Source: Minisyncoccia bacterium (lineage in GTDB: Bacteria; Patescibacteriota; Minisyncoccia; Phycocordibacterales; PALSA-1337). Taken from it: DNA of 64,000 bases. The notes beneath the pieces were generated by a model. The model saw only the letters and a program-made list of their open reading frames with translations, searched no databases and had not been told where the DNA came from. The position numbers and the translations under genes are program-made. Shown one piece after another: positions 1 through 64,000 of this stretch (position 1 is the stretch's first letter; every line of letters starts with the position of its first letter). The DNA is taken from assembly GCA_049997795.1 (NCBI GenBank), contig JBEKVT010000001.1:4085-68084 (forward strand), given 5' to 3'.

Positions 1-1346
1 GCCGGCACCCCGCCTGCCGACCAGCTTCCAATCGATAATCTTGATCACTCCCGAGGAATTGCTTTTGAAGCCGTCAAAACTCGCGCCTTGCTTCACGACT
101 TCCACATCCGCCGCCGAAGTAAGCAGATATGAAGGGAGATCCTTCATGCAATTCTTGCCGCTTATGCTTACAGGGACGTAATCTACAGGCAAGCCGTATT
201 GCCACGAAACATCCGCTATAGTTTCTGTTTTTTCCGTAGTCAGGCGATAGTATTTGAAATCGCCCTCGTGCGCTATCTCCGGGAATCGGAGGTCCTGAAC
301 AGTGGCGATGACGGCATAGTCGTTCGGGCCGATCGTCAGGCCGCTGTAACGATCGCGATACTCCGTCGTAGAGTCGAACGGCGAGAGAAAAACGATGATG
401 ACAACGGCCGATACCGCCACCGCGGCGGCCGAAAGCCGTCTTGATCCCCGCCAGAGATAAGAGGTAAAGCCCAGAGCATAGACAGCCATCGTCAAGACGA
501 AGAACAATGATGTTTCTTTAAAGATGATTCCATAGTAAGGATGTCCCATAAAATATCCTTCGAGGCAGTAAAAGGCTAGAGAGAAACAGAAAGCCGTCGG
601 GATGGCGGCGAGCGCCCCAACGACGAGCTTCTTCATCTCTATCCTGCCGAGTTCGGCGGCGATGAGCCAGACGACGAAAGAGAGCAGGAATTCTTTTCCG
701 AACATGCCGCCGTCGACGACGTTCTTGAGGACTATGAACGAGCTCAAAAGATATATGAAGTCGAAGCCGAAGTCCCGGTTCCCTTCGCGTCGCCGGCTCT
801 CCTTGAGCCAGAAGAAGACGAGGCCGAGGCCGAGGAGGACGACGAGCGCGGCGCCGAGATAATATGGCCAGTGAGGCATGACGAGGTAGGTCGAGAAGCC
901 GTTGTCGTAGTTTTCCTTCGGCTCACCCTGGCCTATGAGTCCACCCAAGACCACCATCACCGGCTTGAATATGTGGCTGTGGTCGGGCTGATTGCCGGAG
1001 AAATTGACGTCGTGCCCCGTAAAAGTCTGCTGCCAGAAATCGAAGCCGTATTCGTGAAGGTAATACAGGTGGAGAGAGAAGCCGAAAAGCACCAGAAAGA
1101 TTATAAGACAGACGACCCAGCTCTTTCTGATCGGGAATGACGGGCGAACCTTCAGGGCTCGGAGCATGAAAGCGACGAAAAAGAAAATCAGCAAGGCATA
1201 TAGCTTCACGTCGGAAACGCCGACAGCCAAGAAATCCGTGATCGACTTCAAGGAATATTGGACGTAGGAAGAAAGGCTGACGAGGATTATGAGGATCGCC
1301 GGGATGATGGCCGCCAGCCAGTCTTTATTCATTTTTCGCCAGAAGT
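1..1346 (-). CDS. Integral membrane protein, 3'-truncated by the window edge (N-terminus at 1346; at least 448 aa; multiple TM helices followed by a soluble C-terminal region)
   Basis: I translated the minus strand by hand from 1346 down to 1 and found one continuous stop-free frame. It begins MVVNFWRKMNKDWLAAIIPAILIILVSL and contains several hydrophobic helices. It is absent from the ORF track, presumably because no stop codon lies inside the window. It is the opposite strand of the short RRRR-rich plus-strand ORFs listed there. Confidence 0.55.
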
Positions 1347-1856
1347 TCACCACCATGTTTCTTTTATCTTCAGCTTATAGGAAATGATATTGACCAGAAG
1401 AACCAAGACCACGCTCATGGCCAGGACAGCGGCGATCATCGATATCGACGGCTGCAGCCAAAAATAAGTGAGGGCTATCGCTCCAAGTGGCGAATCGATC
1501 TGATCAAGGATCGGCAGAGGGCCATGTTCGCCGATCTTGAGCCTCCTTTTCAGGAAGCTCTCGACAGCGTCGCCCAGGACGCTGCCAGCGCCCATGAACA
1601 GCCCGACAAGATACGGGCGCCCCTGCAGGAAGACGACGATCAGAGCCGTCAATATGCCGATCAATAAGCCCCCGATCTTCTTGTGGGGCCCTATGAGCGG
1701 AGTCTTGTCCATGCCGACGGTCAGATGGAAATCGAGAGGGACGCCGTATATGCCTCCGCAATCCTTGCATACCACCCTGTCGAAGAAGACCACGGCCATG
1801 TTGGCGCAGTATGCCGGAAGGATGAAGTAAAAAGCCGATAGGAAGAGGCCGCTCAT
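1347..1856 (-). CDS. CDP-alcohol/CTP-transferase family membrane protein (CdsA/CarS-like, DUF46-type)
   Basis: 169 aa with about 5 TM helices. The C-terminal SFLKRRLKIGEHGPLPILDQIDS resembles the CdsA/CarS cytidylyltransferase signature (K-R...G..LP...LD.ID-S). It lies immediately upstream of, and abuts, the membrane protein at 1-1346. Confidence 0.45.
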   Translation of the reverse strand: MSGLFLSAFYFILPAYCANMAVVFFDRVVCKDCGGIYGVPLDFHLTVGMDKTPLIGPHKKIGGLLIGILTALIVVFLQGRPYLVGLFMGAGSVLGDAVESFLKRRLKIGEHGPLPILDQIDSPLGAIALTYFWLQPSISMIAAVLAMSVVLVLLVNIISYKLKIKETWW

Positions 1857-1940
1857 CGCCGGATTATATCACGGCAGACGCATCCAAGCGGCCGCTCGCG
1901 TCGTGTGGCTAAGCGGCCTGGAGTATATTAGAATGTCCCC

Positions 1941-3254
1941 ATGCCAGATAAGCCGAAAAAATTCTCTACTGATCCGTACAAGGGCGTCAGGGACTTCTTC
2001 CCGGAAGACATGGCCGCGGAGAAGGAGATTTTCGGCATCTGGCGCGGCGTTTGCGAGAAATACGGCTATGAAGAATATAACGCGTCTGTCTTGGAGCCGG
2101 CCGATCTGTATAGAGCCAAATCGGGCGAAGAGCTCGTGAACGAGCAGACCTACACCTTCATCGACAGAGGCGAGCGCGAGGTGACTCTCCGGCCCGAGAT
2201 GACGCCGACCGTCGCCCGCATGGTCGCCTCGAAGAAGCGCGAGCTCGTCTTCCCTCTCCGCTGGTATTCCATACCTAATCTTTTCCGGTATGAACAGCCC
2301 CAGCGCGGCCGGTTGCGCGAGCATTGGCAGCTGAACGTCGATCTTTTCGGCGTCGAGTCCATGAATGCGGAGATAGAGGTCATCAATATGGCCTACGACA
2401 TCACCCGTGCTTACGGCTTGAAAGACACCGACTTCGAGATCCGCCTGAACGATCGCAAGGTAATGAATTACGTGACGCGCGAGGTCTTCGGCCTGGGCGA
2501 GGAGGCGGCGTCGAAGATCGCCAGGCTCGTGGATAAGAAAGACAGGTTGAAGCAAGGAGCTTTCGAGGCGGCCGTCGTGGAGATCTTCATGGCCGACCCG
2601 AAGCTCCAGGGCAAGGACGAGGAGTTCCTGACGCTCTTAAATTCGAAGAATTTCGAGGAGTTCGCCTCGCGCTTGCCGCAAACCAAGGAAGAGCATGTCG
2701 GCATGAAGGAGATACGCGAAGTCGTGAAGGGCCTGGAGAGGCTCGGGGTGACGAACGTTCGCTTCGACCAGACCTTGATGCGCGGCTTCGACTATTATAC
2801 CGGCATCGTCTTCGAGGTCTACGACCTGAATCCAGCCAATCGCCGTTCGGTCTTCGGCGGCGGCCGGTACGACGACCTTCTGGCTCTCTTCGGCAACGAC
2901 AAGGTGCCGGCCGTCGGCTTCGGCGCTGGCGACGTCATCGCCCGCGACCTCATGGAGACATACGGGAGATCGGTGAAAAAGAAAGCTCCGGCGGATATCG
3001 CCATCGCTGTGGTCGGCGAGCAGAACGTACCCTATGCTATGGATCTGGCTCAATCACTGCGAGAAAGAGGCATCTGCGCCGCCGTCGATCTTTCCGGCAA
3101 GAAGGTCGGCGACCAGATCGCGAACGCCGCGAGGCGCGGCATCCCCAGGGCGGTTTGCGTCGGAGACGAGGAGGTCAAGACCGGCAAGCTCCGCGTGAAG
3201 ACTTTGGCGACCGGAGAGGAGGCCGTTACGACGGAAGCGGAGATAAAACCGTAA
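1941..3254 (+). CDS. hisS: Histidine--tRNA ligase
   Basis: 437 aa class II aaRS. Motifs RPEMTP, ...FRYEQPQRGRLREHWQ and GGGRYD are present, with an anticodon-binding C-terminal domain. Confidence 0.9.
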   Translation: MPDKPKKFSTDPYKGVRDFFPEDMAAEKEIFGIWRGVCEKYGYEEYNASVLEPADLYRAKSGEELVNEQTYTFIDRGEREVTLRPEMTPTVARMVASKKRELVFPLRWYSIPNLFRYEQPQRGRLREHWQLNVDLFGVESMNAEIEVINMAYDITRAYGLKDTDFEIRLNDRKVMNYVTREVFGLGEEAASKIARLVDKKDRLKQGAFEAAVVEIFMADPKLQGKDEEFLTLLNSKNFEEFASRLPQTKEEHVGMKEIREVVKGLERLGVTNVRFDQTLMRGFDYYTGIVFEVYDLNPANRRSVFGGGRYDDLLALFGNDKVPAVGFGAGDVIARDLMETYGRSVKKKAPADIAIAVVGEQNVPYAMDLAQSLRERGICAAVDLSGKKVGDQIANAARRGIPRAVCVGDEEVKTGKLRVKTLATGEEAVTTEAEIKP

Positions 3255-3260
3255 TATCCC

Positions 3261-3836
3261 ATGCGCCGCATCACTTTCGACCTGGAGACGAAGAACATGT
3301 TCGACGACGTCGGTTCGAACGACCCGGCGATGCTCGATATCTCCGTCGTCTGCATCCACGACTCGGCGGACGACAAGTACAAGAGCTTCCTGGAGAACGA
3401 CCTGCGCGACCTCTGGCCTATCCTCGAGCAGGCGGATGTCCTGGTGACCTGGAACGGCGACCATTTCGACATCCCGCTCCTGAACAAATATTATCCGGGC
3501 GATCTCGCCAAGATGAAGAGCGTGGACCTGATGAAGGCGGTGCAGGACGTCCTCGGGCGGCGCCTGAAGCTCGACACGGTGGCCGCGGCCACTCTCGGAG
3601 TCGGCAAGAGCGGCAACGGCCTCGACGCCATCGAATGGTGGAAGAACGGCGAGGTGGACAAGGTCATCAAGTATTGCATCGAAGACGTGCGCATCACCAA
3701 GGAGCTGTATGAATACGCTTTGGACAAGGGGCACTTGAAATACCGCGATGGTGGTGAGATCCGCGAGGTCAAGCTCGACACCTCGCGCTGGGAGACGCCG
3801 GCCGGCAGCGCCCTGACTTTCACTCTGCCTTTCTAG
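3261..3836 (+). CDS. RNase H-like 3'-5' exonuclease (PolB-exonuclease-related, DEDD-type)
   Basis: 191 aa. FDLETKN, ...TWNGDHFDIPLL and ...YCIEDVRIT carry exo I/II/III-like acidic motifs. It begins 7 bp after the hisS stop. Confidence 0.65.
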   Translation: MRRITFDLETKNMFDDVGSNDPAMLDISVVCIHDSADDKYKSFLENDLRDLWPILEQADVLVTWNGDHFDIPLLNKYYPGDLAKMKSVDLMKAVQDVLGRRLKLDTVAAATLGVGKSGNGLDAIEWWKNGEVDKVIKYCIEDVRITKELYEYALDKGHLKYRDGGEIREVKLDTSRWETPAGSALTFTLPF

Positions 3837-4751: not shown

Positions 4752-5228
4752 ATGAGCCTAGTCTTATCGATCGGCTTGAGCATGGCGGCTTTTATGGTGA
4801 TCTTCGCCTCAGCGGCCGTGATCTGGCTGTACTATCCGCCGAATTTGGAGTACAGAGCAGCGAGAGAGCCCATCCTGCTCTGCGCTTTCATGGCGATCAG
4901 CCTGGCGGTATTCTATGTCTTGCATTCTTCGCCCCGCGGCTGGACATTCTGGTCAGCGATCGGCCTGGCGCTTTTCTTGTCCGGAGTCATGTCGAACAAC
5001 ATGGCCAGGATCGCTTACCGCCACGAGTTCGGCATCTGCGCCGCGCTTGGAGTGGGCATAGCGTTCGTGACCACCTCTCTCGTCGGAGCAAGGACACCGT
5101 CCGGCATCCTCTGCGTTTGCGTCGGTGCTGCCCTGTTGTACATGGCGCTGCTCGTCAAGTACAGCAAGAAGTGGTTTTCTTCCGATAAGCCGCCGGCTAT
5201 TGCGCCGGCGCCGGAACACCGGGCTTAA
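4752..5228 (+). CDS. Hypothetical polytopic membrane protein
   Basis: 158 aa with four hydrophobic segments. I recognise no conserved motif. Confidence 0.45.
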   Translation: MSLVLSIGLSMAAFMVIFASAAVIWLYYPPNLEYRAAREPILLCAFMAISLAVFYVLHSSPRGWTFWSAIGLALFLSGVMSNNMARIAYRHEFGICAALGVGIAFVTTSLVGARTPSGILCVCVGAALLYMALLVKYSKKWFSSDKPPAIAPAPEHRA

Positions 5229-5313
5229 GACCGAATTTCGACCGAACGTCGCACGCTCCCTCCCGGGAGCGTTTTTATATGAGATGACAGTGCAGACTGT
5301 CTAAGGGCTCGGC

Positions 5314-6543
5314 TCAATAATTCTTCAGCCTGTTCGCCTGCTCGTGCTGGCGGATCTTCTCGTGGGCCTTGGCTTCGATCTGGCGGATGCGCTCGCGGGT
5401 CACGCCGAATTCGCGGCCGACTTCCTCAAGGGTGTGGGTGATGCCGTCGAGGAGGCCATGGCGCATTTCCAGGATCCGGCGCTCTTTCTCCGACAGATCG
5501 CCTAGGATCATGTTGACTTGGTCGCGTAAGATGCGGCGGGACGATTCCTGGTCGGGCGAGAGGATCTTGTCATCGGGCACGAAGTCTTGCAGGGTCGACT
5601 TCGAGTCCTCGGAGTCGTCGCCAACGGGGCTCTCGAGCGAGACGACGTCTTGCTCGATCTTCTCGATCTGGTAGATCTTCTCCACGTCCATGCCCATCTC
5701 CGTGGCAATCTCTTCCGGCAGGGGCTCGCGGCCGAGGTCTTGCATCAGGCGGCGGACGACTTGCTTGTATTTGGCGATGGTCTCGACCATGTGGACAGGC
5801 ACCCGGATGGTCCGCGACTGGTCGGCCAGAGCCCTGGTGATGGCTTGCCTTATCCACCAGGTAGCGTAGGTCGAGAACTTATAGCCCTTGGTCCAGTCGA
5901 ACTTGTCGACGGCCCGGAAGAGCCCGAGGTTGCCTTCCTGGATGAGGTCGAGGAGGGTCAAGTCCGGCGAGCGGCCGACGTATTTCTTGGCTATCGAGAC
6001 AACCAGGCGGAGATTGGCTTTGGCCAGGAGGTTCTTGGCTTCGATGTCCTCGTTCTGGATGCGCCTGGCAAGATTCTTCTCTTCCGCGGCGTTAATCAAA
6101 GGATATTGGCCGATCTCTTTCAGATACATCTGGATGGAGTCGTAGGCCGAATCGGAGCCGGTCCGCGAGAGATGCGGCGGCTGTTTCTTCTCTTTCTCCT
6201 TGAGCTCCTCGATCTCGAGGAGGCCGCCGCCCTCGAGGACGTCGACGTTGGCGCCGGAGAGCCGGCTGTAGAGGTCATCCAGGAAGCTGATGTCGTTCTC
6301 GATCTGAGGAAATTCTTTGAGGATCTCATCGTAGGTCACGAAGCCGCGGTTTCTGCCCTTCTGGATGAGGGCGGCGGCCTTGGCTTCGAAATCCTTGCCG
6401 CCGGGATGGGCCTTGACGGCCGAACGTCCGGCTTTCGGCTTCGGCACGGCCCGGCGGACCGGCCTTTTCTTAACGGCTTTGGGGCGCCGCGCGGGACGGC
6501 GGGAGTGCTTGGCCGGACGGGCCTTTTGTCTGCGTTTGCTCAT
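5314..6543 (-). CDS. rpoD: RNA polymerase sigma factor RpoD (sigma-70, short form with a basic N-terminal tail)
   Basis: Region 2 ([18 protein letters not shown]), region 3 and region 4.2 ([24 protein letters not shown]) are all present. Confidence 0.9.
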
Positions 6544-8387: not shown

Positions 8388-12083
<3,696 letters not shown>

Positions 12084-54552: not shown

Positions 54553-55650
54553 ATGAATATCGTAGCCCGGAACAGGCCGACAATCTCGCTGGGGACGCTG
54601 GGCATCGCAGGCGCCTGCGCTGTCCTCGCTATAGCCCTTTTTGCCGTTACCGCTCCGAAAGTCCATGCTTTTGGCCATAATTTCGGCGGGGATAGTTATA
54701 ACAACAATAGCGGCAGCCACAACGGCAATGGGGGCGGTTTTCCAAACAGTGGAGGCAATAACAATGGGAGCGGAAATAATTGGGGCAGTAACAATGGCGG
54801 TAACGGCAACGGTCGGAATAACAATAATAATGGCGGCGGCCAAAACAACAACACCGGCGGGCCCGATTCACATTGGCTGGACCATCGGATCACCCAGCCC
54901 CCTTTTCAGAATTATCATTACCCCGTTCCGTCTTTTCCACATTTTGACCATCCTCATTACCAGCCGCCCGTGATCCAACCAGTCACATATTATCAGCCGA
55001 CCCAATATATCTATCAGTCGGTTCCGACTTATTCCTATCAAAGCTATCCAGACTATTATCAGTATCCCACTAGCTACAGTTACCCGACTACGTACTATCA
55101 GCAACCGACTCAGATATACGCATATCAGACGCCTTCATACCCCTACTACACGAATAACCAATATACCGTCACCGGCCAATCCAATAATTCGAATGAACTG
55201 AACATCAGCTGCTCCGCCGAACCTTCCGCGTCAGCCGTCGGCCAGCCCGTCACGTGGACCGCCACGGTCACCGGCGGCGCGGCGCCTTACACGTACTCGT
55301 GGTCCGGATCCGACGGGATCTCCGGCTCGCAGGGCTCGGTCACGAAGTATTACGATTCCGCCGGCGAGAAAACCGCCATAGTCATGGTGACTTCCGCAAA
55401 CGGCCTGACCAGCACACATCCTTGCGACAACACGTTGACGGTGCAGGGCGGCGGCCAGGGAGCCTATCTCCCGCAGACCGGCGCTGCCGCTCCCTCGCAG
55501 ACACCGGTCGAGAACGGCAACCCGAATGCGGCCGCGGCCGCGCTCTCCAACGTCCCTTGGGGATGGCTAGCGTCCCTCATCATCCTGGTGCTTCTTGGGA
55601 CGATGGCGTATCTTCTGTTCGAGCGCCAAAAGGTAAAGATCAGTCCTTGA
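54553..55650 (+). CDS. LPXTG-anchored cell-surface protein with Gly/Asn-rich and Tyr/Gln/Pro-rich low-complexity regions and an Ig-like domain
   Basis: Signal peptide, a GGNNNG... tract and a YQ(Q)P/T repeat tract. The C-terminus has LPQTG, then the hydrophobic WLASLIILVLLGTMAYLLF, then the charged ERQKVK: a sortase sorting signal. Confidence 0.7.
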   Translation: MNIVARNRPTISLGTLGIAGACAVLAIALFAVTAPKVHAFGHNFGGDSYNNNSGSHNGNGGGFPNSGGNNNGSGNNWGSNNGGNGNGRNNNNNGGGQNNNTGGPDSHWLDHRITQPPFQNYHYPVPSFPHFDHPHYQPPVIQPVTYYQPTQYIYQSVPTYSYQSYPDYYQYPTSYSYPTTYYQQPTQIYAYQTPSYPYYTNNQYTVTGQSNNSNELNISCSAEPSASAVGQPVTWTATVTGGAAPYTYSWSGSDGISGSQGSVTKYYDSAGEKTAIVMVTSANGLTSTHPCDNTLTVQGGGQGAYLPQTGAAAPSQTPVENGNPNAAAAALSNVPWGWLASLIILVLLGTMAYLLFERQKVKISP

Positions 55651-56062
55651 ATAGCTCTCTATACTTCTCCCATTCCCCTTCTTCGATGTCACGGAAGATC
55701 TCCTTCTCGTGGATCTGTGATTTTTGATAAAGCTCGTCGTCCAGCTCTCTGGGACGAAGGTGGAAGTGAAGGTGGCTCACCTTAAGCTTGCTGTCAGGTA
55801 TGAAGGGCCGAAAATTTTGACAGATGTCACAACCCTTAGCGAAGCTGTTGAGGATTTTTTCTTGTACGTTCACCACTTCCTCAAGGAGGCCGTCCCTTTC
55901 TTCTTTTGTAAGCTCGCTTAATCTTTCTACATGACGCTTTGGTATGACCAGTAGATGTCCGGGCATTAATCGTGGATTGCTCAAGACGGTAAGAGCGTAT
56001 TTTGTGTCATGGATTATCTGCTCGCCATCATGGGCGATGATCTTGCAGAATCGGCATTCCAT
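55640..56062 (-). CDS. HIT-family hydrolase
   Basis: 140 aa with the histidine triad HLHFHL. Its GC is lower (~47%) than the surrounding chromosome. Confidence 0.8.
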   Translation of the reverse strand: MECRFCKIIAHDGEQIIHDTKYALTVLSNPRLMPGHLLVIPKRHVERLSELTKEERDGLLEEVVNVQEKILNSFAKGCDICQNFRPFIPDSKLKVSHLHFHLRPRELDDELYQKSQIHEKEIFRDIEEGEWEKYRELFKD

Positions 56063-56096
56063 TCATCTATTATAGCAGAAGTCCCGTCTCAAAACG

Positions 56097-56138
56097 TCGG
56101 TCGGCTGCATGGCACGATGTTGGAACCATTGTGCAACG
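56097..56138 (+). repeat. Cassette-associated conserved element, copy 1 (divergent: ...CGGCTGCATGGCACGATGTTGGAACCATTGTGCAACG)
   Basis: Read directly; 22/26 identity to the core consensus. Confidence 0.7.
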
Positions 56139-56248
56139 GGAGGTGGAGGAGTATCTATGGCAAGACTCCTGCCAACCCTGACTAGCAACCTCTATAACCA
56201 CACATCCTTATTTTATCTTCTTCCGTATATATCCTCCGCAACCTAAAT

Positions 56249-56443
56249 TTATTTCTTTCCTTTTATATTAATCAGGACCAGGCAGATGATTATAAAAATT
56301 ATTGAAACACAAAACATGATCCAAGAGTATGAAATCGCATGCTGATTTTGAGTAATCTTCCAAACATTTATTATGCTCATCAGACCGATCCCTATCCAAA
56401 AACTGATAGCCCACTCCAATTGTCTTTTGCTTTTATTTATCAT
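56249..56443 (-). CDS. Tiny two-TM membrane protein (64 aa), very AT-rich; paralogue of the next gene
   Basis: MINKSKRQLEWAISFWIGIGLMSIINVW.... GC is about 30% against roughly 62% for the chromosome. Confidence 0.4.
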   Translation of the reverse strand: MINKSKRQLEWAISFWIGIGLMSIINVWKITQNQHAISYSWIMFCVSIIFIIICLVLINIKGKK

Positions 56444-56628
56444 TTTTTAACTCTTTTTAGCAATATGATATTCAATAATAATCCCATGACTGCAACCCCG
56501 ATTATCCCATAGTTATAAAGCAATATATTGCCCTGCGGAGTATGTCGATAATTCATAATGAGATTTATAAGACTATAAACACCTCCTCCAATCCAGAATC
56601 CTATCCCATATTTATATATTTCATTCAT
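56440..56628 (-). CDS. Tiny two-TM membrane protein (62 aa), very AT-rich; tandem paralogue
   Basis: MNEIYKYGIGFWIGGGVYSLINLIMNY.... It overlaps the downstream gene by 4 nt. Confidence 0.4.
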   Translation of the reverse strand: MNEIYKYGIGFWIGGGVYSLINLIMNYRHTPQGNILLYNYGIIGVAVMGLLLNIILLKRVKK

Positions 56629-56684
56629 TATATAATCTTATCCTCCTTATGATCATTATCCCTTGATTTCCATGATTGGCTGGC

Positions 56685-56717
56685 AGTGTGGTACAACGTT
56701 GGAACCATTATGCAACG
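56685..56717 (+). repeat. Cassette-associated conserved element, copy 2 (TGGCTGGCAGTGTGGTACAACGTTGGAACCATTATGCAACG)
   Basis: Read directly. Confidence 0.8.
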
Positions 56718-56733
56718 AGAATTGAAATGATGT

Positions 56734-56967
56734 CTATCGCGGGGCCGGCAAGCCGGCGCTCTTGTAGCACACATTCTCGCATGATTGTTCCTGCTTCGCC
56801 GCCGCATCCCTGCCCGATGAGTCAAAAACGCCCTGGCACAGAACGACACAGTCGCCTACCGCGGTCGTCGCTTCTTGGTCTTGGTTATGGCTATGTATCC
56901 CGATCTCTATGCCGATCAAGATAAGGATGACGACGATTATCAAGATCAACGCCTGCGTTTTTGTCAT
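56734..56967 (-). CDS. Small secreted/membrane 4-Cys protein (77 aa)
   Basis: A hydrophobic N-terminus, then ...GDCVVLCQG...SCENVCY. Confidence 0.35.
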   Translation of the reverse strand: MTKTQALILIIVVILILIGIEIGIHSHNQDQEATTAVGDCVVLCQGVFDSSGRDAAAKQEQSCENVCYKSAGLPAPR

Positions 56968-56996
56968 GTTTTTTCTTTATCTATCCCTATTCTTCC

Positions 56997-58028
56997 TCAC
57001 TGGACCGCCGAGGACGCGCCGACTGAAAACGTCGCCGTGTCGCCGCTTATCTCTGTGAGTTTGATGCCGTAGTTCGGAGTGCTATATGTTTGGCCGACGG
57101 AAAGAGTCTGCGGCGTGATCGGAACGACGGCGATCATGCAGCGGATCCGGGGCGGCTTGTCCGACGGGAATGAGTTCCAGCATCCGACCGGCGTGATCTC
57201 TATGGTCGCCGAAGACGGGGATAGGTCTTGCAAAGTGAAGTAAAAGCTCTCGTTTCTAACCTCCGCGATGCCGCCCTGCCGTAACGACACGCTTCCGGGC
57301 ACATCGAGCTCCTTGATGGCGGAAGGAACATCAAGGTCTCCCTGCGGCTCAGTGCTCGCGTAGGCATCCGCCTCCGCTTGTAGCGCGGCGGACAGGACCG
57401 AGGGATCAACGGAGGCTCCCGCAAGCGAGACGGTCTTCGCGAGGACGCCGGCGTTGCTCCCTCCCCCGTCGCCGACGACGAGAAAGTCCGTCGTGCTCAA
57501 GGGAATGATGCTCGTATCGAAGCGGCGGCCGCTCGGTAACATGATGAGGCCAGACATCGTGGCGTTCGAGATGTCCGCCGTGGTGGTCGCGCCCGAAGTC
57601 CCCGAGCTTGTCCCCTCCGGATATGCGACCATCCATTGCCCTGATGCGGGACTATAGAAATATTTCGTCTGAGCGATCGGGCTCGCGTGGCCGTTTTGCT
57701 CGTCGGTTATCGTTTGGGCCGCTGAATCGACGACGTAGATCATTACGCCTCCCGGAGAACCGACTTGGAGCGTTTTTACCAGGGTACCTCCGGGAAACAA
57801 CGCCGTATCCTTCGTGGTTGTCGAGAGGATTTGCCAGGAGCTCGGGTACCAAAAAGCGAAGCCGAGATCCGGATCGGTGTATCGGATCATGCCGTAGGTA
57901 TCGGCCGTGGGAGCGCCTGTCGGAGAAGATGTTCGCGGGCGAATGAGGAAATACGCTCCACCGCCGACTATGAGCAGCGCGAGCACGACGAGCGCCCACG
58001 TCTCGACCTTGCCGAGTTGATTCTTCAT
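56997..58028 (-). CDS. Secreted hypothetical protein (343 aa, GC-rich)
   Basis: N-terminal signal/TM segment MKNQLGKVETWALVVLALLIVGGGAYFLI. No catalytic motif recognised. Confidence 0.45.
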   Translation of the reverse strand: MKNQLGKVETWALVVLALLIVGGGAYFLIRPRTSSPTGAPTADTYGMIRYTDPDLGFAFWYPSSWQILSTTTKDTALFPGGTLVKTLQVGSPGGVMIYVVDSAAQTITDEQNGHASPIAQTKYFYSPASGQWMVAYPEGTSSGTSGATTTADISNATMSGLIMLPSGRRFDTSIIPLSTTDFLVVGDGGGSNAGVLAKTVSLAGASVDPSVLSAALQAEADAYASTEPQGDLDVPSAIKELDVPGSVSLRQGGIAEVRNESFYFTLQDLSPSSATIEITPVGCWNSFPSDKPPRIRCMIAVVPITPQTLSVGQTYSTPNYGIKLTEISGDTATFSVGASSAVQ

Positions 58029-58046
58029 ATCTTCAATTGTAGCATT

Positions 58047-58073
58047 CTAGCTGCGTGGTGCTATGTTGGAACC
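58047..58073 (+). repeat. Cassette-associated conserved element, copy 3 (TAGCTGCGTGGTGCTATGTTGGAACC)
   Basis: Read directly. ACG is replaced by GCT in the core. It ends 4 bp before the stop codon of the 680-aa gene. Confidence 0.8.
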
Positions 58074-58076
58074 TTT

Positions 58077-60119
58077 TTAACGTTTTGTCACCCCGATCTT
58101 TATGTTCCCGTCGGCAAAATTACCAGCCCGATCAAAAGCTCGTACGGTGATGACATGCGTCCCTATGGGAAGCGAGACGGAGAGCGGCGATGCGGCGGGC
58201 AAGAAAACGCCGTCGTCAAATCGGACGTAATAATTTCCTTGCAAACCGCTTGAATTATCTTGGCTTTCGAATGCCAGCCGTATCACCTCGCCCTCGGATA
58301 CCGCGGTTTTGCTCGCTTTGATGACGGGTTGCAATGGCGGCGTCGTGTCTATCATCACCTTATAATTGGAGACTGCGCCGCTCGTCCCGTTTTTTACCGG
58401 CGCGATATGGAAGTAATAGATGCCATCGGTAAGGCCGGAAAAAGAAACCGAGTCCGCGGATGTCGTGCTTGCTCCAACGAGAGAAGAAGCCGTAGGTATG
58501 TTGTCAAGTGAATAAAGATAGTGATAGCCGTTAGAGGTTATCCACGTAAAGAGGCCGTCCGGCTCGTTGTACCATCGCGCGCTATTGGGATATGTTGGAG
58601 AAAAGACCGGGATCGAGGAAGTGCTATTGTATATCGTCGATTTATCGACAATGCGATAACTGCCATCGGTGGCAAGGCGGAGGACGTCTGTGCCTAATTC
58701 ATCATTCGCCAATATCCGCGTACTTGTACTGAAATGCAACGTCACCTCTCCTTCCTTAAGAGGCTGTAGGACGAGCGTGAACACGTTCCCGTTTAGTCCG
58801 GAAAAGCCCGGGGTCAGAAGGCCGCAAGTCACTCGCACCTCGCCGCGTTTATTATCAATGCTTTTTTCCAGAAACATCGTCGGCGCGCAAAAAGAGTCCG
58901 CGGTGATGATATCTACCACCCGGATCCTTGCCGAATCATAAGTCAAATCGACCTGGGCAACATTAATGGCTTCTCCGCCCGTCAATACATCTATCGCTAC
59001 CTGTTGTTCGGATGATCTGCTCCAGGCGGCGAAGCTCGGGTCGAGCGTCAGAGTAGAATTATAAATCGTGTAAGGCGGTCTTCGGATGGAAAGCGAATGG
59101 TTGTAAAGCAGCGAGCTGTCGACAGAAAAGGCCGCGACCAAGACGATGGAAGAACAAATGATCAAGATGATACGCTCTATCGCGTGGCGCTTTTTTGTCG
59201 CCCCGCGAGTATGGAAAAAAAAGACAATGAGGACGAAGATGAGGGCGACGATCGAGGAAAAGATCGCGGCCTGCACGGTATAGCCAGCTGGATAAAGGAT
59301 GAGCATCCCTCCAGGACTTTCATAAAGGCCGTGGAAGACGAGATTTTTTATGAAATACGCCCTCCCTTCTACGATCGCCTCACGGTCAGATTGCCCTTTT
59401 TGGACCCAATCGGAGCCCGTGTTGAAATACGCCGCAAGCAGGAGCTTGGTGTTCGGATCCCCGAAGGTCGTTCCGACCACGCCGTCCTGTTTCGAATAGA
59501 AGATGAGATTCTCTCCGTCAGTCAAATATCTGCTCTTAAAGGCGCCGGCATAGGCGTCGTCAACCGAGTAGCCGCCGAACACGGCTCCTATCGTCCGGCC
59601 ATTGTCGATCACTGGGTAGCCGGCGATAACCAAGAGCGAGACTGAGCTGCCGCGCTCTATAGAGATCACGGGTTTCCCTTCCGCCACCCTGCGCCCATAG
59701 CTTGTCGCCTGAAATATATAATCTCCGCTACGAGAGGAAGCCGGGGTTTGTGACAGGACTATCCCTCTGTCATCCGTAACAATGATGGTGTCGAGGCGGT
59801 GAATGGTTTGCTCGCTCTGTAGCGTTGAGGCGAGATGCGAGATGTCTCTCGTCTCAATGAGCTTCGCAAGACTGGAAGAGGTGGCGATCTCTCCCGCTTG
59901 TTGAAACACGTATCGTGAATCGGCATCAAGACCGCGCTGTATTTGCCCGACTGCGCTGTCGAAGAATCTCACTTCGAACCAGTGCGTGACCTGATATGAA
60001 AAAAGCGACACTATCGAAAACGCGACGACCGTCGCCGCCATCACGATAAGGATGAATCTTTCTTGTCGTGCGAATTTTATGATCCGGACAAACATCTCGC
60101 TTATATGAAGGCCTTGCAA
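58077..60119 (-). CDS. Large membrane-anchored extracytoplasmic protein (680 aa), hypothetical
   Basis: N-terminal TM plus a second TM cluster mid-protein, with beta-rich extracellular regions. Confidence 0.45.
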   Translation of the reverse strand: MQGLHISEMFVRIIKFARQERFILIVMAATVVAFSIVSLFSYQVTHWFEVRFFDSAVGQIQRGLDADSRYVFQQAGEIATSSSLAKLIETRDISHLASTLQSEQTIHRLDTIIVTDDRGIVLSQTPASSRSGDYIFQATSYGRRVAEGKPVISIERGSSVSLLVIAGYPVIDNGRTIGAVFGGYSVDDAYAGAFKSRYLTDGENLIFYSKQDGVVGTTFGDPNTKLLLAAYFNTGSDWVQKGQSDREAIVEGRAYFIKNLVFHGLYESPGGMLILYPAGYTVQAAIFSSIVALIFVLIVFFFHTRGATKKRHAIERIILIICSSIVLVAAFSVDSSLLYNHSLSIRRPPYTIYNSTLTLDPSFAAWSRSSEQQVAIDVLTGGEAINVAQVDLTYDSARIRVVDIITADSFCAPTMFLEKSIDNKRGEVRVTCGLLTPGFSGLNGNVFTLVLQPLKEGEVTLHFSTSTRILANDELGTDVLRLATDGSYRIVDKSTIYNSTSSIPVFSPTYPNSARWYNEPDGLFTWITSNGYHYLYSLDNIPTASSLVGASTTSADSVSFSGLTDGIYYFHIAPVKNGTSGAVSNYKVMIDTTPPLQPVIKASKTAVSEGEVIRLAFESQDNSSGLQGNYYVRFDDGVFLPAASPLSVSLPIGTHVITVRAFDRAGNFADGNIKIGVTKR

Positions 60120-60270
60120 TATGCTTTTATAGTATCACAGTATTCGAAATGAGGATTCACTCGGAATCGGTCCAGATTTCGCCCAGTGACTTCTATTCCT
60201 CGGGCTCGAACAAACCCCCGTGGCGTGGCTCAAAATATGGTGGTGCTTCGGTCTCCGATACTAAATTTAT

Positions 60271-60300
60271 TTGGCTGGCCGTGTGGTACGAAGTTGGAAC
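60271..60300 (+). repeat. Cassette-associated conserved element, copy 4 (TGGCTGGCCGTGTGGTACGAAGTTGGAACT)
   Basis: Read directly. The stop codon of the SRPBCC gene starts 1-3 bp after the element. Confidence 0.8.
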
Positions 60301-60302
60301 TT

Positions 60303-60749
60303 TTATTTCTTAAGCATCTTCCTCAATTTGTCGATAACAGCCTTCTCCCAATACTTCATCGAGTACCATCTTATTAATGGTCTTGCGACGATACGCAGCC
60401 AAGGCCTATGGATAGAGACCTGATACGTATAGTCAATGATGGTTCCCTCTGGGTTCTCGGAAAGCAAGAGTTCTTCATGCCCGGAAGTCCCGAACTTGGG
60501 GTTTTCGTTGTCTGAACTGAATCCTCTTCCGGGGATGATCCGAGTCATCATCCTTACTGGGAATAGCCGCCCGAACGACTTCACTCCGGCTTCCATCTCC
60601 AGATAATTCTCTTCGCGTTTCGTGACTTTGATCGATTCGGCGACCTTCGGGAAATATAATGGGAACTTCTCAAAATCGGTTATTATCTTGAAGACTTGTT
60701 CTCTAGGTGCTTTGACAAGCCATCGGCCGTGGAGAGTGATTTCTTTCAT
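60303..60749 (-). CDS. SRPBCC-superfamily protein (polyketide cyclase/dehydrase-like)
   Basis: 148 aa with a Polyketide_cyc2-like pattern (...WLVKAPREQVFKIITDFEKFPLYFP...). Confidence 0.6.
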   Translation of the reverse strand: MKEITLHGRWLVKAPREQVFKIITDFEKFPLYFPKVAESIKVTKREENYLEMEAGVKSFGRLFPVRMMTRIIPGRGFSSDNENPKFGTSGHEELLLSENPEGTIIDYTYQVSIHRPWLRIVARPLIRWYSMKYWEKAVIDKLRKMLKK

Positions 60750-60776
60750 GATTCAAGTATATCAAAAAAATTTGTT

Positions 60777-60801
60777 AGCTGCGTGGTACGATGTTGGAAC
60801 C
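60777..60801 (+). repeat. Cassette-associated conserved element, copy 5 (TAGCTGCGTGGTACGATGTTGGAACC)
   Basis: Read directly. It lies about 40 bp upstream (plus-strand coordinates) of the MTase gene's stop codon. Confidence 0.8.
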
Positions 60802-60841
60802 ATTATGCCCGATACTCAATCAAAACAGATCTCGTATGGTT

Positions 60842-61564
60842 TTAGCTGACTTTTGTTGCGATAACTCCTATATATCTTTTATATAATGAATCGGGAAGAA
60901 GCGACAATAATAGACTGAATAGATTAATGACTTTCGATATACACCGACGCGTGACACCTTGTTTGGTCACGAACCGAAAATAAAATCTTCCGACATATCC
61001 AGAGTAATCGATCCTGCAACCTTTTGCGATCATCACAGATGTGATTGCCTTTAGGTTCATAGATGACAGAACATGGTTCTTAAGGACATCCGGTTCAAAT
61101 AACTTGTACAAGAAGTAATAGATCGGGGAATTGAGGTTGGGCACATCGATGATTATCTTTCCTCCGGGCTTTAGAAGTTCCAAATGCTTATCCAAGACCT
61201 CCTCCAAATCATTGAAGTGCTCGATAAATCCGAACGAGCATACCAGATCGTACTTGATCTGTGATTTAAAATCGAAGATATCTGCTTCATAGAAATGATT
61301 ATATCTGTATCCCCTGCTCTTGAACCAACCAGATAAAGAATCCGTGCCGTGAAATGAATCGACTCCGTTTAATTCATATCCTTTTTCGCCAAAAACAGCT
61401 AAAAATTTTCCTGGGTAGCAACCGATCTCCATGCAATTGGCAGTAATCGTGTCGGGTATTTCTTTCTCGATCCATAGGCGAATCGGGTGATTACGCGGCG
61501 CGATCTCGAAAACCGTTTCTTTCCAATGATTACTCCAGTATTCTTCTGTCGAGACTGATTGCAT
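60842..61564 (-). CDS. Class I SAM-dependent methyltransferase
   Basis: CMEIGCYPGKFLAVFGEKGYELNGVD is motif I. The likely start is MQSVSTEEYW. The track's 15-codon N-terminal extension runs through repeat copy 6. Confidence 0.65.
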   Translation of the reverse strand: MQSVSTEEYWSNHWKETVFEIAPRNHPIRLWIEKEIPDTITANCMEIGCYPGKFLAVFGEKGYELNGVDSFHGTDSLSGWFKSRGYRYNHFYEADIFDFKSQIKYDLVCSFGFIEHFNDLEEVLDKHLELLKPGGKIIIDVPNLNSPIYYFLYKLFEPDVLKNHVLSSMNLKAITSVMIAKGCRIDYSGYVGRFYFRFVTKQGVTRRCISKVINLFSLLLSLLPDSLYKRYIGVIATKVS

Positions 61565-61570
61565 TCTATT

Positions 61571-61599
61571 GGCTGGCCGTGTGGTACGATGTTGGAACC
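61571..61599 (+). repeat. Cassette-associated conserved element, copy 6 (GGCTGGCCGTGTGGTACGATGTTGGAACC)
   Basis: Read directly. It ends 36 bp before the SET-domain gene's stop. Confidence 0.85.
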
Positions 61600-61635
61600 T
61601 TTTTAACAAATCTGGGCTCTTAAATGCGATAATTT

Positions 61636-62022
61636 CTACTCAATCCTTAAAAAATAACCCTTGCAATTAGGACTCTTGCAATTACATAGAACCCGGACTC
61701 CGCCCTTCTCAGTCTGGTTATAATCACAGGTGATTTCTTCACCTAGCATTATGTCCCTTACAGATTTCAGGTGCGGTTGAACCATTGAAATATCTAAAAC
61801 TGTATTGGGGTCACAGGAATGATTAATCCAATTGAGTACAGCATTATCGTCTACATACAAACCCTTCCCAATGTGGGCAAATCTTGGAGTGGGAACGTTT
61901 ACAACAGTATCTACAGGAACTATATAAAATACTTCTCCTTTATTGATTGGCCGTTCGGTAAAAATACCCATATTATCTATGGGACTTTTTCTTTTTTTGA
62001 GAAATGGGTGATTATTCGGCAT
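61636..62022 (-). CDS. SET-domain protein (putative protein-lysine methyltransferase)
   Basis: 128 aa with NHSCDPN and GEEITCDY, the SET signatures. A post-SET-like CNCKSPNC follows. Confidence 0.65.
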   Translation of the reverse strand: MPNNHPFLKKRKSPIDNMGIFTERPINKGEVFYIVPVDTVVNVPTPRFAHIGKGLYVDDNAVLNWINHSCDPNTVLDISMVQPHLKSVRDIMLGEEITCDYNQTEKGGVRVLCNCKSPNCKGYFLRIE

Positions 62023-62683
62023 ATTCTCTTAGCACAGCATCGACAAGAACATTCATTGGATCTATCTTATTGATTGGCAACTCTTTTGACATTAAAGCTA
62101 CTTCGGAACACCCAAGAATGATGGACTCCGATACTTTTGAGTATTTTCGAGCAAGGTTCTGTGTGAATGTCTCCTGCTTCTTCTTATCAATTCCGAGGTT
62201 GTAATTCGATATTGCTCGAGACAAATCTTTTACTTCCGATTCTAATAATTCATTGCATTTAATACCGCTAAACTTATATAAGCCGCTTGCCAATGTATAA
62301 GGAGTGCCAAAGACTGTGACAGATTTAACCTGAAGATTATGTAAACATTTTTCAACTTCTGCCCGAAGATTAATTATAGGTACTTTTGTTGCCCGCTGCA
62401 GGGTATCGAGGTATACATAAGCAGTGTTGCAAATAATTGCAATGATATCTGAACCACTTTTCTCCAATTGCTTTAAACCATCAACATAAGGAGAGAGAAT
62501 CTCGTGTGTACCATTATTAAAAATAAGTTCAGGAGCAGAAATGCTGTTTATTATCACATGGGGGTATTCACTATTATCCTTAGGCTTATTTTTCTCAATA
62601 AATTTTCTTATCAATTCTAAGTAGAAAAAACCAGTAGACTCAGGCCCTATTCCCCCTAGTAGCCCTATAGTCTTCTTTTTCAT
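62012..62683 (-). CDS. Asp/Glu/hydantoin racemase-family protein (aspartate racemase-like)
   Basis: 223 aa with two Cys-containing active-site blocks (...IIAIICNTAYVYLD... and ...IILGCSEVALM...). It overlaps the SET gene start by 11 nt. Confidence 0.65.
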   Translation of the reverse strand: MKKKTIGLLGGIGPESTGFFYLELIRKFIEKNKPKDNSEYPHVIINSISAPELIFNNGTHEILSPYVDGLKQLEKSGSDIIAIICNTAYVYLDTLQRATKVPIINLRAEVEKCLHNLQVKSVTVFGTPYTLASGLYKFSGIKCNELLESEVKDLSRAISNYNLGIDKKKQETFTQNLARKYSKVSESIILGCSEVALMSKELPINKIDPMNVLVDAVLREYAE

Positions 62684-62723
62684 ACAAAAACTCTACTACA
62701 TAAACGCGGGTTCGGGAAGTAGT

Positions 62724-62751
62724 GCTGGCTGCGTGGTACGATGTTGGAACC
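62724..62751 (+). repeat. Cassette-associated conserved element, copy 7 (GCTGGCTGCGTGGTACGATGTTGGAACC)
   Basis: Read directly. It lies in the divergent intergenic region between the racemase (-) and the SGNH hydrolase (+). Confidence 0.85.
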
Positions 62752-62915
62752 ATAATAACGCAAAAATTGGAATAAACAAAAAGCCGCCCGAATTAGCCGG
62801 CTGCGCGGCAAGAAGTGGATGTGTCTTTCGCTCAGTCCTTTTTGTCCTATCCGGACTAGTATAGCCGGGCGAGCGGCTTCTATTTATCGATGATGGATTT
62901 CCTGCTAAAATCACC

Positions 62916-63740
62916 TTGAGAGACAAAGATCAGCGAGGCCTTATGGGAACTAAAAAGATCATCGTCCTATACGCGATCGTCGCCGTCGGCTCGGCATTGG
63001 CAGTCGGCTGGATCTTCTCATATGTCGGACGCGGCGCGCCCGGACCGAAGGGCCTCACCACGAGCGTCCTGTTCATCGGCAACAGCCTGACTTATGTCAA
63101 CGATCTGCCGCAGACTCTCTCCGATATCGCCCGATCGCTCGGCGACACGGCCGAGACCGATATGTACGCTCCGGGTGGTTATACGCTCAAGCAGGACGCA
63201 CAAGACCCGACGGCTCTGGACAAGATAGCGTCCAGGCCTTGGGATTTCGTAGTCTTGCAAGAGCAGAGCGAGCTGCCCGCTCTTCAAGACTCCCAGGTGG
63301 ACGACGAGGTGACGCCTTATGCATTGGAGCTCGCGAGCGATGTCCGTCAGGCTGGGCCTGACACCAAGGTCGTATTCTTCGAGACATGGGCTTACAAGGG
63401 CGGCGATCCACAGTATTGTGCTTCGACTCCGACCTTGTGCGATTTCGAATCCATGCAAGACCAGCTGTCGAGATCGTACGGCCTCTTGGCGCAAAGGTCC
63501 GGCGGGTTGCTGGCCCCGGTCGGCGAAGCGTGGCGATCGGCGCGGGATGCCTATCCTGAGATCGAGCTCTATCAGAGCGACGGCAGGCATCCGTCGGCGG
63601 AAGGCACCTACCTCGCGGCCGCTGTGTTCTACATGGTCTTGTTCAAGAAGGACGTCGCCGGCGCGGCATCTTTAGGCATCGACCCGGCACAAGCGAAGAT
63701 CCTGCAACAGGTCGCGAGACAGGTGGTCTTCAGACAGTGA
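62916..63740 (+). CDS. SGNH/GDSL-type hydrolase (DUF4886-like), secreted
   Basis: N-terminal TM/signal, then ...VLFIGNSLTYVNDLPQ (GNSL in place of GDSL) and a C-terminal ...SDGRHPSAEG (catalytic D-x-x-H). Confidence 0.6.
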   Translation: MRDKDQRGLMGTKKIIVLYAIVAVGSALAVGWIFSYVGRGAPGPKGLTTSVLFIGNSLTYVNDLPQTLSDIARSLGDTAETDMYAPGGYTLKQDAQDPTALDKIASRPWDFVVLQEQSELPALQDSQVDDEVTPYALELASDVRQAGPDTKVVFFETWAYKGGDPQYCASTPTLCDFESMQDQLSRSYGLLAQRSGGLLAPVGEAWRSARDAYPEIELYQSDGRHPSAEGTYLAAAVFYMVLFKKDVAGAASLGIDPAQAKILQQVARQVVFRQ

Positions 63741-63761
63741 TGGCGCCGATGATCTTTTGTT

Positions 63762-63790
63762 GGCTGGCTGCGTGGGACGAAGTTGGAACC
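63762..63790 (+). repeat. Cassette-associated conserved element, copy 8 (GGCTGGCTGCGTGGGACGAAGTTGGAACC)
   Basis: Read directly. A double stop (TAA TAA) of a minus-strand gene begins 2-5 bp after it. Confidence 0.85.
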
Positions 63791-63794
63791 TTTA

Positions 63795-64000
63795 TTAAAG
63801 GATTTTAAAGCCTAAGACGATAAATTCGTCCTGTGAATGAATTTGTCTGGAATAATATTTCTCGAACGTTTTCGTCTTTTCCTCTTCTGATCTATAAACC
63901 TCATGTCCGACCCTATTCAGTGGTAATTTTCCAAAAGTCATCCTAGACTTCTCGATAATCGTTGCGGTGGCAACATTCTTTCCATCGTTCTCAGCCAGAA
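63795..64000 (-). CDS. 3' end of an unknown gene running off the window edge (at least 68 aa seen)
   Basis: The minus-strand frame ...LAENDGKNVATATIIEKSRMTFGKLPLNRVGHEVYRSEEEKTKTFEKYYSRQIHSQDEFIVLGFKIL** is stop-free up to the edge. Confidence 0.4.
   Translation of the reverse strand, partial: LAENDGKNVATATIIEKSRMTFGKLPLNRVGHEVYRSEEEKTKTFEKYYSRQIHSQDEFIVLGFKIL

Follow-up and report, generated by a model that had tools for sequence, protein, structure and literature searches.

A tRNA-anchored array of element-ended gene cassettes in Patescibacteria, probably based on large serine recombinases

Towards the end of a 64,000-nt stretch of DNA from a Minisyncoccia bacterium (contig JBEKVT010000001.1; hereafter the window, i.e. 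the whole stretch that was analysed), a short element, GGTTCCAACNTCGTACCAC followed by a 9-nt tail, occurs in eight co-oriented copies between 56.1 and 63.8 kb and separates small gene cassettes from one another. Considered together with its counterparts in other genomes, this arrangement is read here, with a probability of roughly 0.7, as an integron-like array that is nonetheless based on a large serine recombinase (LSR), in which cassettes without any recombinase gene of their own are lined up at a tRNA gene. The broader claim, namely that this is an active serine-recombinase analogue of the integron and a second, independently evolved gene-capture system spread across the Patescibacteria, is put forward more tentatively, at somewhat less than even odds.

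The repeated element and the array it delimits

On the plus strand of the window, the 28-mer GCTGGCYGYGTGGTACGAWGTTGGAACC gives six matches at up to three mismatches against 0.00 expected, and the core TGGNACNANGTTGGAAC nine matches against 0.16 expected, all of which lie on this strand and are confined to 55.7-63.8 kb. Read on the minus strand, which is the coding one, the element becomes WAAAGGTTCCAACNTCGTACCAC followed by RCNGCCAGC, with about 36 nt conserved, and could be mapped as a 19-nt arm, designated the P arm below, plus a 9-nt tRNA-like tail. A profile built from all copies and searched with nhmmer confirmed the eight copies of the window, all in the minus-strand reading. These are found at 63763-63790 (after a cassette with an ASCH-domain gene, and identical to positions 4890-4936 of the public contig L037 described below), 62724-62751 (closing the cassette that holds the sole plus-strand gene), 61572-61599 (36 nt past the stop codon of a SET-domain gene), 60774-60801 (40 nt past that of a methyltransferase gene), 60274-60301 (1 nt past that of an SRPBCC gene), 58046-58073 (3 nt past that of a gene for a 680-aa protein), 56679-56706 and 56100-56127, the latter being both the distal-most and the most diverged of the eight. 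A ninth and weak match at 55750-55766 (region 55721-55766), with 17 of the 19 core bases, falls within a HIT-family gene, exactly on the codons of the His-x-His-x-His motif (the histidine triad), and is probably a chance resemblance.

Regarding the relation of the element to the neighbouring genes, a first-pass annotation made from the sequence alone had already measured several gaps between stop codon and element, which were reproduced within 1 nt (3, 1, 40, 36 and 4 nt). It had also described the absolute orientation of the element as fixed and independent of that of the gene before it, and this is indeed the case, the plus-strand gene at 62916-63740 (DUF4886/SGNH) being borne out as lying between two elements of common orientation. 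Its proposal that the element is coupled to stop codons, always at very short range, holds in part. In a census of 237 unique element copies from all loci, 201 have the end of a same-strand open reading frame (ORF) within 300 nt upstream, and 65 of these 201 ends fall at -2 to +5 nt from the element; there is a strong peak at stops but no rule, and the word "always" was an overstatement. The TAA stop is often supplied by the A-rich bases directly before GGTTCC. In agreement with the same annotation, the element is tied to the ends of cassettes and not to promoters or terminators, since promoter-like and terminator-like sites do not coincide with it.

The array does not stop at the limit of the window. 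The public contig L037 (JBEKOM010000035.1; the L numbers designate related loci) is 100% identical to window positions 61972-64000 (2029 nt) in reverse orientation and runs 4.7 kb past the window, where it carries five more elements (at 2200, 2801, 3494, 3891 and 4526) with their cassettes, a tRNA-Gln(CTG) gene (1507-1578) and the 3' end of pyrG (1-1458). The whole array amounts to about 11.5 kb and 13 elements, the distal 8.4 kb lying in the window and some 3.1 kb beyond; it begins directly after tRNA-Gln, in the orientation of this tRNA, and the HIT gene constitutes its other end. No recombinase gene was found at either end of the array, and the region past position 64000, where the first-pass annotation advised looking for an IntI-like tyrosine recombinase and attI, is occupied by tRNA-Gln and pyrG instead. 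The label of L037 is "Candidatus Bathyarchaeia archaeon"; its bacterial pyrG, tRNA-Gln and Patescibacteria-type array, and its 100% identity to the 2029 nt shared with the window, are at odds with this name, and mis-binning is the most likely explanation.

Beyond this population, the 19-mer was found in 38 stretches of a species-representative genome set, almost all of them metagenome-assembled genomes (MAGs) of Patescibacteria, including Paceibacteria, Saccharibacteria, and Kaiser-, Nomura- and Adlerbacteria, as well as in more than 119 metagenome stretches, and it is nearly invariant among distant classes of Patescibacteria. When copies scoring at least 28 bits are counted as strong, there are 152 of them in 91 loci, almost all in Patescibacteria MAGs or metagenome contigs, and all the copies (93/93) are co-oriented across the 32 loci with at least two strong copies. 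The largest array (L018) packs 11 copies in 8 kb and follows the same ORF-then-element pattern as the window. In IMG/VR viral contigs, the exact 19-mer had no match, relaxing it to a 15-base pattern brought up only single chance-level matches about 23 nt long, and no close relative of the LSR was found. A search of full-text literature, with subscription journals outside its coverage, returned no account of cassette arrays or of tRNA-targeting LSR elements in Patescibacteria.

tRNA anchoring, attachment sites and the associated recombinase

The position of the arrays with respect to tRNA genes is highly biased. Forty-two tRNA genes are located at no more than 3 kb from an array; 36 of them lie upstream of it in the same orientation, five downstream in the same orientation, and a single one upstream in the opposite orientation; the upstream gene is mostly tRNA-Gln, next tRNA-Ser, and tRNA-Gly(CCC) in Saccharibacteria. 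Besides, the 9-nt tail of the element tracks the 3' end of the local tRNA. Thus, the tRNA 3' ends GGCAGC, GGGTAACCA, CTGGCAAAT and TATCCGCAC are associated with the element tails CCAGC, CGCTAACCA, CGCCAAAT and AATCCGCAC, respectively, the tRNA-Gly 3' end TACCCGCAC with the tail AACCCGCAC, and the tRNA-Ser 3' end CCCACCCCTTCCGC with a tail of the very same sequence, CCCACCCCTTCCGC. The longest run shared by tRNA and tail averages 6.15 nt, compared with 4.37 nt when tRNAs and tails are paired at random and 5.24 nt when they are shuffled within a tRNA type, and none of 2000 permutations reached 6.15 nt in either test. The organization is the one that characterizes tRNA islands, in which DNA enters at a tRNA 3' end and the displaced tRNA 3' end is repeated at the far boundary; an integrase of their own, as carried by tRNA-targeting integrative elements, is absent from the cassettes of the window.

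The only recombinase recurring in element loci is an LSR of about 500 aa (Resolvase, Recombinase and Zn_ribbon_recom domains), present in 11 loci. Its gene, wherever the end is visible, runs antisense to the array, with a 3' end abutting or overlapping a tRNA gene in six loci, namely L039 (Gln), L142, L113, L157 and L079 (Ser), and L017 (Gly), and an element in L025. In these LSR loci, a single element 5-11 kb downstream forms the distal boundary of the LSR-carrying insertion, and a rolling-circle initiator of the filamentous-phage type (G2P/Phage_CRI) usually lies beside the LSR gene. The family comprises 4498 proteins at E <= 1e-30, few of which are named, as "recombinase family protein" of Patescibacteria, Parcubacteria or Paceibacterota. 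Four LSR homologues were drawn from it with a long contig as the sole selection criterion, which avoids the bias of sampling by the element. In all four, a tRNA-Gln gene overlaps the 3' end of the LSR gene on the other strand and an element co-oriented with the tRNA is found 4.5-7.3 kb downstream. Anti-phage defence genes form part of their cargo, among them DpnI, Mrr, ThsB-TIR, a BsaWI-type restriction system, SduA, MutH with a methylase, and a HEPN protein, located for instance at 1-9000 in L166, 7818-9050 in L170 and 4158-6728 in L172, with the G2P initiator alongside; such LSR elements have the appearance of a small defence island borne by a rolling-circle replicon.

The LSR reading frame also extends across the attachment site into the tRNA gene of the opposite strand, where it ends after an overlap of about 60 nt (L166, L168, L170, L172 at 11449-11520; also L039, L113, L142, L157 and L079), whereas in the attP-like junction of L025 it ends just beyond the P arm. 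Integration and excision would therefore give the recombinase different C-terminal ends, over the last 10-20 residues.

When the junctions of L013, L017 and L025 are compared, four forms of attachment site align on a common core, A(C/T)CCGCAC. In L013, the tRNA-Gly end with its native downstream DNA reads GATTCTCGCT-ATCCGCAC-AACAAGACCGATGCTGA and corresponds to attB. In L017, the distal element, GGTTCC..CCACA-ACCCGCAC-AACCCAAGGCTGATGCTGA, corresponds to attR and the LSR-side junction, GATTCTCGCT-ACCCGCAC-AGAGTTGTAAAATCAGCG, to attL, while the LSR-side junction of L025, with cassettes before it, is attP-like and reads GGTTCC..CCACA-ACCCGCAC-TGAGTAAAAATATCACC. A second partial tRNA-Gly 3' end, GCGGGCGATTCTCGCTACCCGCAC, is present in L017 (776-947) 170 nt past the intact tRNA-Gly and represents the true attL; the 170-nt interval holds an antisense tRNA-like T-arm, and a comparable stretch follows the tRNA-Gly gene of L036.

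The arms lying next to the LSR genes, designated P', are homologous among the Gln-, Gly- and Ser-targeting elements, with the consensus AnnGTTGAAAnATCnnCnTTTTTAGGTG. LSR substrates comprise two inverted half-sites around a central dinucleotide. A comparison by hand of P with the reverse complement of P' gave matches at 11 of 20 positions, with TTnCAAC in common. From these alignments, the motif TT(C/T)CAAC would stand in P and in the reverse complement of P' at about 12-18 nt from a centre at the CCAC/tail boundary, and the T-loop of the tRNA, TTCGA(A/T)T, about 5 nt nearer to the same centre. In LSR-DNA complexes, the attP and attB half-sites differ in spacing, and the shift of about 5 nt may be the difference expected between them; it would explain how the T-arm, a feature of every tRNA, could act as the left attB half-site.

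Comparison of loci sharing part of their DNA points to the element as the breakpoint. In L096, a tRNA-Ser(TGA) gene reads ...CCTCTCCGC-AGATTTTAAATAGCCC, with AGATTTTAAATAGCCC directly after the tRNA, and in L081 an element precedes the same DNA, as ...GTTCCAACATCGTCCCAC-CCTCTCCGC-AGATTTTAAATAGCCC. The two loci are 99.6% identical over 918 nt rightward and unrelated on their left sides; a unit ended by an element was therefore inserted between the tRNA and its former neighbour. More generally, flank homology was seen in 29 pairs of elements; it is restricted to one side in 25 of them, where it usually comes to within 0-13 nt of the element, and present on both sides in four. Two of the latter (100% and 99.6% identity) represent the same DNA sampled again, and a third, L079/L087, shows 97% identity in one flank and 79% in the other.

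Proposed mechanism and competing explanations

In the mechanism proposed for this LSR-based array, the element would combine a P-type half-site of about 24 nt, with the invariant WAAAGGTTCCAACNTCGTACCAC, and a short copy of a tRNA 3' end, the tail restoring the tRNA after insertion. Autonomous elements would comprise the LSR gene, a Rep gene, cargo and both arms, and the units of the window, with one or two genes, a P arm and a tail only, would be hitch-hikers piled up at the tRNA end. Such recombinase-less cassettes would be inserted and excised there by an LSR that a related autonomous element provides in trans, with a crossover presumably at the boundary between P arm and tail and with new cassettes entering at the tRNA-proximal end. 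If the right half-site matters little, recombination between the tRNA end (B-core-X) and an element (P-core-X) would release the proximal block as a circle, which could re-enter at a tRNA end. In integron terms, the tRNA 3' end would play the role of attI and the element that of attC.

A number of observations weigh against this mechanism, starting with the junctions themselves. The right flanks of the array elements are unlike the P' arm, with only 9% of them above the 95th percentile of controls, and neither a second half-site in the array junctions nor a P' arm at the start of the cassettes could be recognized; the junctions are therefore of the P-core-X type (attR-like) and not full attP sites. 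Canonical LSRs recombine P-core-X with attB only if a directionality factor is present. Since P' lies within the LSR reading frame, coding constraint could account for part of its conservation. LSR queries detected no such gene in the window or in the adjoining 4.7 kb, no circular form of a cassette was observed, and L096/L081 is the single clean insertion polymorphism. In addition, the gene order is identical in 23 contigs from other samples of the population (8 places shown); the array is static in this population, with no sign of recent activity.

Junctions without a P' arm and an array that is static between samples would both suit a less dynamic history, in which each unit is a full LSR element that has decayed, the elements then being dead attR scars between cassettes that are not individually mobile. 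Complete LSR elements do end in exactly the same site, and tycheposon islands have been described as accumulating degenerate remnants and partial tRNAs (bioRxiv 10.1101/2020.12.28.424599). Such a history needs thirteen independent deletions, each sparing one or two intact genes with a stop near the site (65/201), and homology breaks off precisely at the element, whichever side is considered. It is deemed unlikely because the units are compact and intact, because phmmer detected no LSR or Rep pseudogene fragments among the ORFs of the array, and because a 19-mer that is near-invariant in distant classes implies continuing selection on the site. The case for the LSR-based array has also to be weighed against a signal acting on the transcript, be it a 3' untranslated region (UTR) stabiliser, a processing site, a terminator or a promoter, as the element lies just after stop codons and its isolated copies are often followed by a hairpin terminator. 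This is highly improbable: the element has neither a predicted structure nor a match in Rfam, promoter-like and terminator-like sites lie elsewhere, its orientation is unchanged beside the inverted gene, and tRNA anchoring, tail covariation and the att relationships are left unexplained at the RNA level.

Where other recombinases are concerned, the first-pass annotation had recognized attC-like logic in the array, and the ORF-then-site layout, the co-orientation and the mixed GC content would fit a classical integron array, or a cluster of attC sites lacking integron integrases (CALIN), with an unusual attC and an IntI encoded elsewhere. The folding check that it had called for, carried out as DNA folding of 101-nt stretches for the eight copies on both strands, gave z values from -1.15 to +1.6 and no conserved hairpin, bulged or otherwise, and the consensus fold of the aligned copies reached only -0.54 kcal/mol, with three invariant pairs and no covariation. 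The element has no R''/L''-L'/R' symmetry and no GTTRRRY core, the GTTGGAA of the opposite strand failing the final Y and being on the wrong side of the site. A phmmer search with IntI1, for which the query was validated against VchIntIA (E = 9e-88), found no tyrosine recombinase in the window and retrieved such enzymes in one of the first 156 related loci (L108), i.e. in 1 of 157 sources with the window included. The arrays start at tRNA genes and not at intI/attI, and the integron reading keeps next to no probability. The other option left by the same annotation, a different site-specific recombination target, is favoured by the one-sided homology breaks, the L096/L081 pair and the set of four att forms. 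Such a target could be that of a host tyrosine recombinase, either of the Xer type, as for integrative mobile elements exploiting Xer (IMEX) at dif, or a tRNA-targeting integrase acting in trans; the 28-nt length of the site, the 5-15 nt block of identity with the tRNA 3' end, which is typical of tyrosine integrases, and the absence of a recombinase at the array would agree with it. It is nevertheless very unlikely, considering that the site shows no dyad symmetry around a 6-8 bp spacer, and that tyrosine recombinases are essentially absent from the related loci, where LSRs recur at the exact junction.

The exception, L108, has three adjacent tyrosine recombinase genes at 202-3468 and a single weak element match, and these recombinases are probably unrelated to the element system. 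Several further identities were considered for the element and rejected. A sigma-54 promoter on the plus strand was suggested by TGGCACGATGTTGGAA, which resembles TGGCAC-N5-TTGC, but lacks the GC of the -12 region and lies on the strand opposite to the genes; the latter also applies to a GGAAC promoter of the extracytoplasmic function (ECF) type. A sigma-70 promoter or an intrinsic terminator at the element was discarded for want of coincidence. A CRISPR-like array would have "spacers" of 0.5-2.2 kb with genes inside, and a DNA uptake sequence does not agree with copies that are clustered in a single orientation. A dif/Xer site (28 bp, with two 11-bp inverted arms and a 6-bp spacer) was dismissed as the halves of the 28-mer have no arm symmetry, and a tRNA-like 3' UTR as there is neither a 5' acceptor partner nor a predicted fold. 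No Rfam family and no tRNA were found within the window.

Related systems and cassette contents

As in integrons, the cassettes are short, mostly promoter-less, of mixed origin, made of one or two genes and co-oriented, the site at the cassette end often overlaps the stop codon, and one fixed entry site would lie at the end of the array; like CALINs, most arrays here have no adjoining recombinase. Unlike attC, which is a folded hairpin of 57-141 nt, the site is an asymmetric double-stranded sequence of about 28-36 nt; the associated enzyme is an LSR whereas that of integrons is a tyrosine recombinase, and entry would occur at a tRNA 3' end instead of attI next to intI and Pc. The layout works like an integron but fails every defining integron feature. 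Composite islands of the staphylococcal cassette chromosome (SCC), inserted by the Ccr LSRs at rlmH, consist of tandem cassettes with direct repeats of the att site at the 3' end of this conserved gene, and many of their units have no recombinase of their own and depend on a supply in trans. The LSR, the direct repeats and the recombinase-less units are shared with the arrays described here; the latter differ by a target consisting of several different tRNAs instead of rlmH, by units of 0.5-2 kb instead of 3-60 kb and by the host lineage. For LSRs of the phage type, such as those of Bxb1 and phiC31 or the A118/LI integrase, attB, attP, attL and attR stand in a four-way relationship and the integrase gene adjoins attP. 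The same relationship and the integrase beside attP are encountered here, as may be the difference in half-site spacing, but attB is made of a tRNA T-arm and acceptor end, the block of identity is longer (5-15 nt), and many units without a recombinase draw on one and the same P arm. As for tycheposon islands, they were described in Prochlorococcus as integrating at tRNA 3' ends, newer arrivals pushing older ones inward, mostly by means of tyrosine recombinases with a minority of LSRs, and with their own integrase, a replication module and partial-tRNA repeats (bioRxiv 10.1101/2020.12.28.424599). Anchoring at a tRNA 3' end, successive stacking and a streamlined small genome are common to both, and dense arrays of single-gene units with a conserved non-tRNA arm have not been described for tycheposons. 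The combination of enzyme and target, the size of the units and the kind of repeat set the present arrays apart from SCC and tycheposon islands alike.

The possible significance of the LSR-based arrays is related to the lifestyle of their hosts. In Patescibacteria, whose genomes are tiny and which rely on other cells, the gain and exchange of accessory genes are poorly understood; to our knowledge, few other routes of gene gain are documented for such small genomes. If the proposed reading is correct, their flexible gene content would have one of its main sources in a widespread tRNA-anchored cassette system, and would include defence functions, since restriction, Thoeris-like, Shedu-like and toxin-antitoxin genes are found on the larger elements. 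It would also mean that the integron layout, i.e. cassettes ended by a site and accumulated at a single point of entry, is able to evolve around another class of recombinase. On the practical side, the conserved 19-mer is a simple marker for such arrays in metagenomes, and a recombinase family with modular tRNA targets may serve genome engineering.

Regarding the contents of the window, the cassette genes are mutually unrelated, no cassette encodes a recombinase, and the GC content of the cassettes ranges from 0.34 to 0.58, against 0.578 in the rest of the window. From the window end inward, the 3' part of a cassette with an ASCH-domain gene running past the window end (63791-64000, minus strand) is followed by the cassette at 62752-63762 with the DUF4886/SGNH gene, which is inverted with respect to the array and so on the plus strand (GC 0.573). 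All the subsequent ones are on the minus strand, namely a two-gene cassette at 61600-62723 with an Asp/Glu racemase (62012-62683) and a SET-domain protein (61636-62022; GC 0.369), a class I methyltransferase at 60802-61571 (GC 0.403), an SRPBCC/polyketide-cyclase-like gene (60303-60749) at 60302-60773 (GC 0.445), a 680-aa membrane protein with Cache-like and cohesin-like domains (58077-60119) at 58074-60273 (GC 0.514), a 343-aa secreted protein (56997-58028) with a 77-aa membrane protein at 56707-58045 (GC 0.577), and two small membrane proteins (56440-56628 and 56249-56443) at 56128-56678 (GC 0.343). The terminal unit at 55640-56099 holds the HIT-family gene (55640-56062) and has no element after it; a HIT homologue in L007 has an element on each side. 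The families that recur in the arrays of other genomes are HIT, Nudix-like, glyoxalase-like, MNT/HEPN and BRO-N. Just past the array, 54553-55650 encodes a 365-aa secreted protein with long low-complexity regions rich in Asn/Gly and in Tyr/Gln/Pro, and the remainder of the window is ordinary chromosome with rpoB/rpoC, a primase and a sigma factor, where neither IntI1 nor LSR queries detected a recombinase.

Some additional features were noticed in the arrays of other loci. In many cassettes of L018, L023 and L031 (e.g. L018, reverse complement, 637), TCGTGATATTCTAGAGATATG comes directly after the element tail and reads as an extended -10 box (TGnTATTCT) with an ATG 6-7 nt later, which suggests leaderless transcripts from a promoter belonging to each cassette. 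A hairpin of 48-63 nt, CTACTTCGCAATTTGTCTAAAAAGACAAATTGCTTCGAAGTGC, follows four different elements with 94-100% identity and different upstream cassettes (L003 3717-3765 and 5688-5736; L030 3077-3140; L043), and one array cassette of L029 contains a transposase of the IS1595 family (4822-5715). In loci of the Saccharibacteria type, conservation reaches upstream of the P arm, with the motif TAGCCATATTTA about 20-30 nt before GGTTCC; in four loci (L014 2424-2641, L020 1087-1294, L076 3152-3366 and L043 351-557), a module of about 200 nt with the hairpin CCCCTTTCGGGG stands before the element independently of the upstream gene. Besides, glutaredoxin-like and DedA-like membrane genes recur near the elements of Saccharibacteria-type loci (L003, L013, L014, L020, L022, L030 and L038). 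The Saccharibacteria-type island appears to fill a fixed slot between tRNA-Gly(CCC) and the glutaredoxin-like gene, since in L003 and L030 the latter lies just beyond the last element, on the opposite strand; the counterpart slot of the Paceibacteria comes after pyrG and tRNA-Gln (five loci).

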